DNA of 64,000 nt. Origin: Escherichia coli (GTDB lineage: Bacteria; Pseudomonadota; Gammaproteobacteria; Enterobacterales; Enterobacteriaceae). The position numbers were made by a program, and so were the translations under genes. The notes beneath the pieces were generated by a model. It saw nothing but the letters and a program-made list of their open reading frames with translations, did no database searches and was not told the DNA's origin. Location: the NCBI RefSeq assembly GCF_965641715.1, contig NZ_OZ282453.1. One strand, 5' to 3'. Shown one piece after another: positions 54,846 through 58,014 of this stretch (positions are counted from its first letter, which is position 1; every line of letters begins with the position of its first letter).

Positions 54846-54878
54846 GCCGGATAAGACGCGGCCAGCGTCGCATCCGGC
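54846..54878. repeat. REP (repetitive extragenic palindromic) element
   Basis: gccggataagacgcggccagcgtcgcatccggc, the typical E. coli REP palindrome. Confidence 0.75.
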
Positions 54879-54926: not shown

Positions 54927-56300
54927 TTATTTTAATAACCGCACCCGGCACGTTTTTCCTTTAATCTTCCCGCCCTGTAACTGTTTCCATGCTTTATGAG
55001 CAACAGCCTGACGGACCGCGACATAGACATGCGCCGGATGCACGGCGATTTTGCCAATATCTGCGCCATCAAGCCCGATATCTCCTGTCAGTGCACCTAA
55101 TACATCACCCGGGCGCATTTTGGCTTTTTTCCCGCCATCGATACACAACGTTGCCATTTCTGCTTCCAGCGTCACAATGGAACTATTAGCTGGCGGCGTT
55201 TGCCAGTTAAGTTTTATCTGCAACATGTCAGAAATGATATTGGCCCGCTGTGCTTCTTCCGGAGCACAGAAACTGATCGCCAGACCGCTATTTCCTGCAC
55301 GAGCTGTACGACCGATGCGATGTACATGAACTTCAGGGTCCCACGCCAGCTCAAAGTTCACCACCAGCTCAAGCGATTTAATATCCAGACCACGCGCAGC
55401 AACATCAGTCGCGACCAGTACACGGGCGCTACCGTTAGCAAAACGTACCAGGGTCTGATCGCGATCGCGTTGCTCCAGATCGCCGTGTAATGACAATGCA
55501 CTTTGCCCTACTTCATTCAGCGCGTCGCAGACAGCCTGGCAATCTTTTTTGGTATTGCAAAACACCACGCAAGAGGATGGCTGATGCAAGCTTAATAACC
55601 GTTGCAACAGAGGAATTTTGCCTTTGCTGGATGTCTCATAAAATTGTTGTTCAATGGGTGGCAAAGCATCTGTTGAGTCAATTTCAATCGCCAAAGGATC
55701 GCGTTGCACTCGTCCGCTGATTGCAGCGATGGCTTCCGGCCAGGTTGCCGAAAACAGAAGCGTCTGTCGAGATGCAGGCGCAAAACGGATGACATCATCA
55801 ATGGCATCGCTAAATCCCATATCCAGCATGCGGTCGGCCTCATCCATCACCAAAGTATTCAGCGCATCCAGTGATACCGTGCCTTTTTGCAAGTGATCCA
55901 GCAAACGACCCGGCGTTGCCACGATAATATGCGGCGCATGTTGCAACGAATCACGCTGCATACCGAACGGTTGACCACCGCACAACGTCAAAATTTTGGT
56001 ATTTGGCAGAAAACGCGCCAGCCGACGCAATTCACCTGCCACCTGATCCGCCAGTTCACGCGTAGGACACAGCACTAAAGCCTGGGTTTGAAATAGCGAC
56101 GCATCAATTTGCTGTAACAAGCCGAGGCCAAAAGCCGCCGTTTTGCCGCTGCCGGTTTTCGCCTGCACGCGAACATCTTTTCCGGCAAGGATCGCCGGAA
56201 GCGCGGCGGCCTGCACCGGCGTCATGGTTAAATAACCCAACTCATTAAGGTTCGTGAGTTGGGCGGGAGGCAAAACATTCAGGGTAGAAAAAGCGGTCAC
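54927..56300 (-). CDS. dbpA: ATP-dependent RNA helicase DbpA (DEAD-box)
   Basis: 457 aa with Walker A AKTGSGKTAAF, DEAD box, SAT and HRIGRTAR motifs. Confidence 0.96.
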   Translation of the reverse strand: MTAFSTLNVLPPAQLTNLNELGYLTMTPVQAAALPAILAGKDVRVQAKTGSGKTAAFGLGLLQQIDASLFQTQALVLCPTRELADQVAGELRRLARFLPNTKILTLCGGQPFGMQRDSLQHAPHIIVATPGRLLDHLQKGTVSLDALNTLVMDEADRMLDMGFSDAIDDVIRFAPASRQTLLFSATWPEAIAAISGRVQRDPLAIEIDSTDALPPIEQQFYETSSKGKIPLLQRLLSLHQPSSCVVFCNTKKDCQAVCDALNEVGQSALSLHGDLEQRDRDQTLVRFANGSARVLVATDVAARGLDIKSLELVVNFELAWDPEVHVHRIGRTARAGNSGLAISFCAPEEAQRANIISDMLQIKLNWQTPPANSSIVTLEAEMATLCIDGGKKAKMRPGDVLGALTGDIGLDGADIGKIAVHPAHVYVAVRQAVAHKAWKQLQGGKIKGKTCRVRLLK

Positions 56301-56329
56301 AATCTATTCTCGTGGTCATCGACGCAAAG

Positions 56330-56503
56330 TTAGCAGGCGCGTATCCTCGCAGATCTACGCTCACGATGCGACAATTTAATCGGTTCTTCATCGGGTGGTG
56401 GGTCAGGCATGGGTTGCGGGCGAGGGATCGGATCGGGCACTGGAACAGGATCGCCAGGAATCGGTTCAGGGACAGGAATTTGCAAATAAATAAGTGTCGT
56501 CAT
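56330..56503 (-). CDS. Hypothetical small proline-rich protein (57 aa)
   Basis: ORF MTTLIYLQIPVPEPIPGDPVPVPDPIPRPQPMPDPPPDEEPIKLSHRERRSARIRAC with GGAGGG RBS; not in the ORF track (short). Confidence 0.4.
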   Translation of the reverse strand: MTTLIYLQIPVPEPIPGDPVPVPDPIPRPQPMPDPPPDEEPIKLSHRERRSARIRAC

Positions 56504-56777
56504 ATTTCCCTCCGGTCATTGGGTGGACTCTTAAAGGGTAGACGCTGATAAATAACAGGCAAAAAAAAGCCGACTCATCAAAGTCGGCGTCGTACGAATC
56601 AATTGTGCTATGCAGTAATTCAAAAAAGGAAGTAAGACAATATGGAGCGCAACGCCCATCGCTTGACGTTGCATTCACCTGCAAGAGAGATATTGCCCTG
56701 AATGGGTAGAGAGTTTATTGACTTCGCTCAAACTTTGCGGCGTTTTTGTATACAGACAGCCGGAAAAATTGCTTTTG

Positions 56778-57782
<1,005 letters not shown>

Positions 57783-58014
57783 TTATTTTGTAGTCTAGCC
57801 TTCTGGCCCTGTTACGCAACATCTCATCACCCCATTACCCTGAAATGATTAATAAAATTCTGTCTAAATTGAATACAAAAAGCAAAATGCTTTTCCGTAT
57901 ACAAACCGTGTGAAGTGTTAAATAGCGTCTATCATTATCAGAATTATCTGATCATATGACGTGCTTTTTTGCGATCGGATAGCAACAAAAATTGATAAAA
58001 ATAACGGGATCTCA

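Follow-up and report, generated by a model that had tools for sequence, protein, structure and literature searches.

The proline-rich reading frame between dbpA and zntB of Escherichia coli is the small-protein gene ynaL, which has a conserved X-Pro core and lies between fnrS and a conserved junction with dbpA

A preliminary description of an Escherichia coli genome, made from the nucleotide sequence alone, had drawn attention to a proline-rich open reading frame of 57 codons between dbpA and zntB, which it regarded as unannotated and which it thought could be either a small protein or a small RNA with a short coding frame. The locus raises the question of whether this frame is a genuine gene, which parts of it are under selection, and to which of its neighbours it is tied. 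We followed up this question in the window, by which we mean the whole stretch of 64,000 nucleotides of contig NZ_OZ282453.1 (RefSeq assembly GCF_965641715.1) that was analysed, and in homologous loci of other species. The comparison provides handles on the gene in the form of selection that is limited to an acidic X-Pro core, a tie of the gene to fnrS rather than to dbpA, and conserved blocks at the junction with dbpA.

Identity of the reading frame

The ORF listing and direct reading both located the frame as described, at 56330..56503 on the minus strand, with 57 codons running from an ATG start to a TAA stop and with GGAGGG before the ATG; the same coding sequence is given by RefSeq and by the match to Pfam family PF23677. 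Its translation in the window is the 57-residue peptide MTTLIYLQIPVPEPIPGDPVPVPDPIPRPQPMPDPPPDEEPIKLSHRERRSARIRAC. By direct reading, the Shine-Dalgarno sequence GGAGGG (56508..56513, minus strand) lies 4 nt 5' of the ATG, or 5 nt if GGAGG is counted instead, and the 22 nt that precede the ATG on the minus strand read CACCCAATGACCGGAGGGAAAT. Alignment of 30 species showed that a Shine-Dalgarno sequence of the GGAG type and the ATG are retained at this position. The frame is flanked by zntB (56778..57761) and dbpA (54927..56300), both likewise on the minus strand, and when the 264-nt spacer was shuffled, an ATG-initiated ORF of 57 codons or more appeared on that strand in 4.7% of the shuffles. 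The length of the ORF is thus not improbable in itself, and its reality must therefore rest on conservation and on published tagging and ribosome profiling.

The ORF is ynaL, an already catalogued E. coli small-protein gene for which both the name and the demonstration of translation date from 2018, so that the label 'unannotated' has to be withdrawn. Its K-12 MG1655 equivalent is b4743 (YP_009518775.1), located at 1409308..1409481 between fnrS (b4699) and dbpA (b1343), and a comparison with K-12 YnaL revealed the same 57-residue peptide in the same fnrS > ynaL > dbpA position, with no differences. The spacer was found by megablast in 5392 of 5426 complete E. coli genomes, and in all 30 RefSeq records sampled across the identity ranking ynaL is annotated beneath the match, the RefSeq names being "proline-rich small protein YnaL" or "protein YnaL" (also WP_001296046.1). 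The peptide has its own Pfam family, PF23677 'Protein YnaL-like', which it matches with 136.9 bits against a cut-off of 27, residues 1–57 corresponding to profile positions 1–57. The finding is a rediscovery, in which a genuine gene, listed for years in the K-12 annotation, RefSeq and Pfam, was picked from raw sequence. The flanks of ynaL in the window strain are not base-for-base identical to those of MG1655.

Expression of the peptide has been documented in published work. VanOrsdel et al. 2018 (PMC6001520) gave the same 57-aa sequence at 1409308..1409481, obtained an immunoblot band for YnaL after chromosomal SPA tagging, reported YnaL also as an unannotated positive in a tetracycline ribosome-profiling screen and, based on the operon, suggested a function related to dbpA. 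Schumacher et al. 2023 (PMC10746267, Table S8) quantified Ribo-seq and RNA-seq reads on ynaL, which they listed as a "previously known sORF". Ribosome occupancy, the lack of which would have spoken against the frame in the preliminary description, is thus already on record from tetracycline ribosome profiling and from the 2023 Ribo-seq, and the proposal of a small protein is borne out by frame conservation, the SPA-tag immunoblot and Ribo-seq. In the literature searched, we found no published phenotype or functional experiment for ynaL.

Selection on the YnaL peptide and its predicted form

A word-indexed search yielded 164 YnaL homologues, and all of those that carry a source name belong to the Enterobacteriaceae. 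Additionally, we scanned one genome per species, for 100,044 species, with the back-translated motif P-x-P-D-P-x-P-D-x-x-P-I-K; this returned 94 loci, which were separated by ORF translation and synteny into 89 true ynaL loci and 5 chance matches (L041, L064, L071, L072 and L093 in our numbering). The 89 true loci are from Escherichia, Salmonella, Citrobacter, Enterobacter, Klebsiella, Raoultella, Kosakonia, Leclercia, Lelliottia, Superficieibacter, Pseudocitrobacter, Pseudenterobacter, Silvania, Huaxiibacter and Intestinirhabdus, together with a few metagenome-assembled genomes labelled only Proteobacteria or Enterobacteriaceae, and the order zntB-fnrS-ynaL-dbpA is maintained among them where flanks are available. 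Conservation of the frame across the Enterobacteriaceae, which the preliminary description had suggested as a check, was confirmed in about 15 genera and extends to the Erwiniaceae.

Protein-level selection was found in codons 18–43 (56375..56452, minus strand), which encode an acidic core of alternating X-Pro, DPVPVPDPIPRPQPMPDPPPDEEPIK. Across 87 species, positions 1 and 2 of codons 18–40 are conserved at about 1.0, against 0.34–0.84 for position 3, and pN/pS over codons 18–43 is 0.145 (Nei-Gojobori), with a Jukes-Cantor dN/dS of 0.08. Codons 11–150 of dbpA in the same genomes gave a pN/pS of 0.134 and a dN/dS of 0.065; as judged from these substitution patterns, the X-Pro core of YnaL is shown to be subject to purifying selection of the same strength as on the adjacent helicase. 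Thirteen prolines are invariant from Escherichia to Erwinia and the Erwiniaceae, and the N-terminal 10–17 residues vary freely in both sequence and length. In-frame length variants also occur, including an 11-codon deletion in E. coli E69 (locus L025) and a 10-codon duplication in a Salmonella protein (P0053). Within the core, codons 35–37 (56393..56401, minus strand) encode Pro-Pro-Pro inside a DPPPD motif, with P35 present in 100%, P36 in 97% and P37 in 100% of the 87 species and with variable third positions. Pro-Pro-Pro motifs of this kind need EF-P, and translation of ynaL would be expected to depend on it.

An AlphaFold model computed with 30 homologues contained no secondary structure, with a pLDDT of about 90 over residues 21–40 and a pTM of 0.22, and YnaL is predicted on this basis to be an extended, alternating X-Pro rod of the polyproline type with no globular fold. 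The polyproline spacer of TonB (PF16031 TonB_N; NF008084) likewise has an acidic tract of alternating X-Pro, for which a rigid polyproline-II rod is the expected form. Membership in TonB_N was rejected: over YnaL residues 9–43 the TonB profiles match with 11 bits against a cut-off of 33 (PF16031) and 20.8 against 315 (NF008084), scores that lie far below the cut-offs, and the resemblance is compositional. Unlike TonB, YnaL has neither a membrane anchor nor a C-terminal domain.

The fnrS neighbour and loci without an adjacent dbpA

The small RNA that the preliminary description had mentioned for the K-12 spacer is indeed present. It is FnrS (RF01796, 134.8 bits, E 9.7e-26), an FNR-activated small RNA encoded on the minus strand at 56561..56682 according to the K-12 annotation and at 56565..56682 according to Rfam, and it occupies the same spacer and strand as ynaL, always immediately 5' of it. 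A terminator scan placed a strong terminator at its end, consisting of an 8-bp stem (56569..56588, minus strand) followed by T8. The ynaL ORF, which starts at 56503, is outside the FnrS transcript, the end of which is about 58 nt upstream; FnrS is a separate transcript feature that ends at its own terminator with no overlap with the ORF, and the suggestion of an sRNA with a short coding frame fails on this point.

A broader form of that suggestion is that the region produces a non-coding RNA, either as an extension of FnrS or as a separate sRNA such as C0343, and that the ORF is incidental. Such a reading could draw on FnrS being 58 nt upstream, on the 4.7% of shuffles that give an equally long ORF, and on the array-detected candidate RNA C0343, which was placed in this spacer. 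We regard it as scarcely credible and, on these data, as refuted by the codon-position pattern together with the published immunoblot. Third-position variation and dN/dS mark the region as coding, the strong Shine-Dalgarno sequence is conserved, both epitope-tag and Ribo-seq evidence exist, and FnrS ends in a strong terminator; furthermore, an Rfam search of the region returned no family besides FnrS even at E <= 1, and the two junction blocks described below remained unmatched.

We favour ynaL as a gene in its own right, and its upstream region is consistent with this. Between the FnrS terminator and the ynaL Shine-Dalgarno sequence lies a motif, AGCGTCTACCCTTTAAGAG (56528..56546, minus strand), that is kept across genera and out to the Erwiniaceae. 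The TACCCT within it is probably the -10 of ynaL's own promoter, and TTGCCT, overlapping the end of the FnrS terminator T-run, is the probable -35. In two Erwinia loci a promoter scan detected the sigma-70-like site TTGCCA-17-TATGCT directly 5' of ynaL, and this site aligns with the motif common to every genus, which in E. coli reads TTTTTTTTGCCT-N16-TACCCTTTAAGAG (56528..56546). In the spacer of the window, the sigma-70 promoter scan found no site that reaches its threshold, the match of the ynaL promoter being too weak.

In every one of the 89 true loci for which the flank is available, and in 7 distant loci as well, the order zntB-fnrS-ynaL is retained. It is fnrS/zntB and not dbpA that ynaL keeps as its partner, several genera having ynaL with no dbpA beside it, and we infer from this synteny an autonomous ynaL that is physically linked to fnrS. 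The overlap of the probable ynaL -35 with the end of the FnrS terminator would explain why ynaL and fnrS never separate.

The distant loci came from a profile search of 1.84 billion representative proteins, which identified YnaL-like peptides in Mixta, Erwinia, Phytobacter, Scandinavium and unclassified Enterobacter, and all of these loci read zntB-FnrS-ynaL. No dbpA follows ynaL in Phytobacter, Mixta, Scandinavium and Enterobacter sp. BIGb0383; a hairpin comes next, and then a convergent ttcA. Two Erwinia loci have, 3' of ynaL and in this order, a hairpin with a T-run (read by eye), ttcA with its own TATAAT promoter, and dbpA. A same-strand gene directly after ynaL is hence not a constant feature, as Phytobacter, Mixta, Scandinavium, BIGb0383 and Erwinia show. 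The distant peptides share the alternating X-Pro core and have another end (...DPPPH[RM]*). Enterobacter sp. BIGb0383 keeps the residues PYKLSR with other codons, including CTA for Leu in place of the otherwise invariant TTG.

The ynaL-dbpA junction

The helicase DbpA acts on 23S rRNA, where it remodels the region of the peptidyl-transferase centre. The gene for this 23S rRNA-dependent DEAD-box helicase begins with GTG behind a weak Shine-Dalgarno sequence, CGAGA (56308..56312, minus strand), and the terminator scan found no terminator-like site in the 29 nt between the ynaL stop and the dbpA GTG. At this junction, two blocks of the ynaL frame are conserved at the nucleotide level. Block 1, CCGATTAAATTGTCGCAT (18 nt, 56366..56383, minus strand), corresponds to codons 41–46 (CCG ATT AAA tTG TCG CAT) and is conserved including third positions; block 2, AGATCTGCGAGGATACGCGCC (21 nt, 56336..56356, minus strand), corresponds to codons 50–56 (AGA TCT GCG AGG ATA CGC GCC, peptide RSARIRA) and is nucleotide-invariant. 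The major-codon frequency in codons 50–56 is 0.86–1.00 among the 87 species, with a mean of about 0.96 by our own averaging; dbpA averages 0.64 and attains at most 0.83 in any window of seven codons, namely in its first seven. No stretch of dbpA is as strongly conserved as these blocks of 21 nt and 18 nt, for which no described RNA family gave a match. Block 2 is single-copy in each locus, with no further copies in the window or in 97 loci.

The reading frame is less constant than the blocks. Between the blocks lie three variable codons, among which 15 of 87 species have a stop, giving peptides that end in KLSHR* or KLSR*, and block 2 is unchanged in these 15 species, in which the ORF stops before it. 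The ynaL stop can lie as early as -66 nt and as late as +47 nt with respect to the dbpA start, and the reading frame of dbpA has no fixed relation to that of ynaL (32/27/27). Because the blocks are invariant at the nucleotide level and the stop drifts around them, the RSARIRAC tail is probably conserved as nucleotides and not selected as a peptide. A second reading frame, a frameshift or a fusion to dbpA was rejected on the grounds of the random dbpA frame (32/27/27); the +1 frame is mostly open because the blocks are invariant.

Both blocks appear to occur only where dbpA directly follows ynaL. The Erwinia locus L101 lacks block 2, and when read by eye, no block 2 was seen 3' of ynaL in loci L098, L099, L103 and L104. 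Because they are tied to dbpA adjacency, conserved as nucleotides and tolerant of upstream stops, we judge blocks 1 and 2 to be, on balance, probable cis-regulatory elements of dbpA. Should dbpA be controlled by the blocks, this would be the first regulatory input known for this ribosome-assembly helicase. In the searchable literature we found no description of the linkage to fnrS, of the drifting stop or of the invariant junction blocks, and we present them as leads, not as results.

The explanation that we find somewhat better than an even bet is that ynaL, in itself a real and translated gene, is tied to fnrS, with an X-Pro core that is selected and a tail that would be a by-product of an element linked to dbpA. 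In this reading ynaL is autonomous, and in Erwinia it has a promoter-like site and a terminator hairpin of its own. In the group comprising Escherichia, Salmonella, Klebsiella and Enterobacter, the ynaL terminator is missing and dbpA is directly next, and the ORF would read on into the nucleotide-invariant control element linked to dbpA and end at any chance stop. As the ORF reads through this element, the last ~10 residues (ERRSARIRAC) would be a by-product and not a selected peptide.

An alternative that gives the tail a function is that YnaL acts as a cofactor of DbpA or as a ribosome-binding peptide, the rod and the basic tail together aiding 50S assembly, which would explain a ynaL-dbpA operon. 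The direct adjoining of ynaL and dbpA in 87 species, the basic tail of E. coli YnaL and the related function proposed from the operon by VanOrsdel 2018 are all consistent with this idea. However, the tail is not peptide-selected, given the early stops in 15 of 87 species and the nucleotide-level conservation; ynaL persists where dbpA is not adjacent, an argument that concerns adjacency only, as dbpA may lie elsewhere in those genomes; and the junction blocks have no similarity or complementarity to 16S/23S rRNA beyond that of shuffles. We consider a cofactor role distinctly improbable.

In the RNA of the junction, the variable segments flanking block 2 pair better with each other than with the corresponding segments of other clades, a weak signal in a derangement test (P = 0.003 with 12 representatives, 0.009 with 29), and convincing helices around block 2 are formed in Klebsiella, Raoultella, Kosakonia, Escherichia and some Citrobacter, but not in Enterobacter; block 2 would on this evidence be the loop of a clade-variable stem. 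RNAalifold reported for the junction only a 6-bp helix between GUCGCA of block 1 and UGUGAC, which includes the dbpA GUG, and no covariation is possible in it because both segments are invariant. In per-species partition functions, this helix has a median probability of 0.02 and is not thermodynamically favoured in most species. No consistent junction fold emerged across species, and the minimum free energy of the E. coli junction has a z-score of -1.0. Masking of the dbpA start by the 3' sequence of ynaL was not detected, the opening energy being 5.51 kcal/mol for native and 5.51 kcal/mol for shuffled sequences (z about 0), and only for the Kosakonia clade does the prediction show a sequestered dbpA start region (z 2–4). 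Simple unmasking of the dbpA start is thus unsupported by the folding tests.

Other partners for the blocks were also considered. Pairing of FnrS with the junction blocks was at background level. Comparison of the blocks with 16S and 23S rRNA gave similarity or complementarity no better than that of shuffles, and rRNA mimicry, along the lines of the DbpA target hairpin 92, was rejected for this reason. An inverted repeat in dbpA, I3, was rejected as the partner of block 2, the codons of I3 being not unusually conserved. Speculatively, block 1 could be read as a weak -10 (TAAATT; TAA[AG][TA]T) with a GC-rich discriminator, a reading for which no conserved -35 or TG extension exists.

The composition of the coding RNA bears on how translation of ynaL might affect dbpA. 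Over the 78 nt that encode the X-Pro tract, C makes up 47% of the RNA and G 18%, which is the 99.5th percentile of the window and is due to the CCN codons; if left untranslated, this C-rich tract would suit Rho loading. It is a tentative possibility, which we hold to be doubtful, that ynaL shares a transcript with dbpA in E. coli and that ribosomes crossing the C-rich, EF-P-type DPPPD tract influence the level of dbpA through polarity or coupling.

Taken further, ynaL would be a pure leader peptide, in which only the act of translation matters: pausing at DPPPD would sense EF-P, prolyl-tRNA or translation capacity, dbpA would be set through attenuation, Rho or start unmasking, and the released peptide would have no role. 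Several features fit such a leader, namely a variable N-terminus with the last ~30 residues conserved, as in regulatory nascent peptides, the near invariance of the PPP, a following dbpA with a GUG start, a weak Shine-Dalgarno sequence and no terminator before it, the invariant RNA/DNA blocks at the junction, the C-rich, rut-like tract, and the predicted sequestration of the dbpA start in Kosakonia (z 2–4). We nonetheless consider it unlikely, as ynaL with the same core occurs with no same-strand follower in Phytobacter, Mixta, Scandinavium and BIGb0383 and before a terminator hairpin in Erwinia, 26 consecutive codons are held at a dN/dS of about 0.08, beyond the need of a stall motif, the masking test is negative on average, and tagged YnaL accumulates. 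A further reading, which we hold to be a long shot, is that in the Escherichia-Klebsiella-Enterobacter group an ancestral, stand-alone ynaL was recruited as a sensor of translation quality for ribosome assembly, with passage through DPPPD and blocks 1 and 2 together setting the level of DbpA; in that case, the junction element might be the loop of a clade-variable hairpin bound by some factor.

Within our explanation, we give an even chance to the YnaL core working in trans, as a small module for binding or spacing, because the gene is autonomous in the Erwiniaceae, 26 codons are selected and the tagged protein accumulates.

Known leaders provide a further point of comparison. Proline-codon leader ORFs that sense EF-P or prolyl-tRNA include mgtP of Salmonella mgtCBR and mgtL of mgtA, and Rho-linked leaders include tnaC. 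By analogy, ynaL resembles leaders of the mgtP/mgtL/tnaC type in being a short ORF upstream of a same-strand gene, with C-rich RNA and consecutive Pro codons, where the progress of ribosomes could decide how the downstream gene is read, and the consecutive conserved Pro codons that characterise the mgtP/mgtL type are found in ynaL as the PPP of codons 35–37 (97–100%). Unlike the mgtP/mgtL-type leaders, YnaL is longer, its whole core is selected as a peptide, and it is a stand-alone gene in the Erwiniaceae; an alternative-structure switch of the kind in those leaders could not be shown at ynaL-dbpA in the folding and masking tests. A precedent among E. coli DEAD-box helicases is the autoregulation of deaD through Rho in its 5' UTR (Ojha and Jain 2020, PMC7430678), in which a long upstream region and Rho control the gene; no comparable control is known for dbpA, and the deaD leader is non-coding.

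Conserved blocks at the ynaL/dbpA junction

Two nucleotide-invariant blocks, CCGATTAAATTGTCGCAT and AGATCTGCGAGGATACGCGCC, mark the junction of ynaL, the 57-codon proline-rich small-protein gene, with the downstream helicase gene dbpA (window 56336..56383, minus strand), and their conservation exceeds that of every 7-codon stretch of dbpA. These blocks were found only at loci in which dbpA directly follows ynaL, and a search of Rfam returned no family matched by either of them. A weak co-variation signal was detected between the flanks of the second block (P 0.003–0.009).

A promoter-like site next to the FnrS terminator

On the other side of the gene, between the terminator of the small RNA FnrS and the ynaL Shine-Dalgarno sequence, we observed a conserved motif, CTAC(C/G)CTTAAAG (window 56528..56546, minus strand), whose aligned counterpart in two Erwinia loci (L101 2477..2505; L105 2444..2472) is a sigma-70-like site, TTGCCA-17-TATGCT. 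The −35 element of this promoter-like site would overlap the T-run of the FnrS terminator, and fnrS and ynaL would thus be physically interlocked.

Variation in ynaL and its surroundings

The length of ynaL varies in frame in E. coli E69 (L025 6414..6567), where 11 codons are deleted between direct repeats, and in Salmonella enterica, where the homologous protein P0053 contains a 10-codon duplication, PDPRPHPQPM. In the loci of Klebsiella oxytoca (L026), K. michiganensis (L030) and K. grimontii (L082), no stop codon closes the ynaL frame ahead of dbpA; it extends 47 nt inside the dbpA coding region in a different frame, giving predicted proteins of ~84 aa. A 1-nt deletion breaks the frame in one genome, Leclercia adecarboxylata NCTC13032 (L060), which may reflect a pseudogene or a sequencing error.

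Larger changes were also observed. In E. coli STEC388 (NZ_CP041425.1 2224596..2225923), the best match of the ynaL-bearing spacer is broken in two, and the annotation beneath it includes an IS1A transposase; we therefore place an IS1 copy inside the zntB-ynaL-dbpA region of this strain. FnrS is separated from the ynaL core by ~1.25 kb in Intestinirhabdus alba (L079 3465..4835), compared to ~270 nt elsewhere, indicating an insertion between the two. At the locus of Enterobacter sp. EA-1 (L050), the DbpA match is limited to the first 48 residues and the zntB match is 53% identical, which suggests that this locus is rearranged.

Neighbouring elements

A second tiny annotated ORF near ynaL, the 15-codon ynaN (K-12 identifier b4773), is present in RefSeq and maps from K-12 1407989..1408036 to window 57775..57822 on the minus strand, 13 nt upstream of zntB; in another strain its gene field reads 'ydaN'. 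A role as leader of this zinc transporter gene is possible. Finally, an almost perfect palindrome (window 54846..54878), GCCGGATAAGACGC / GCGTCGCATCCGGC, lies next to the dbpA 3′ end in the ttcA-dbpA spacer, and its appearance is that of a REP-type element.
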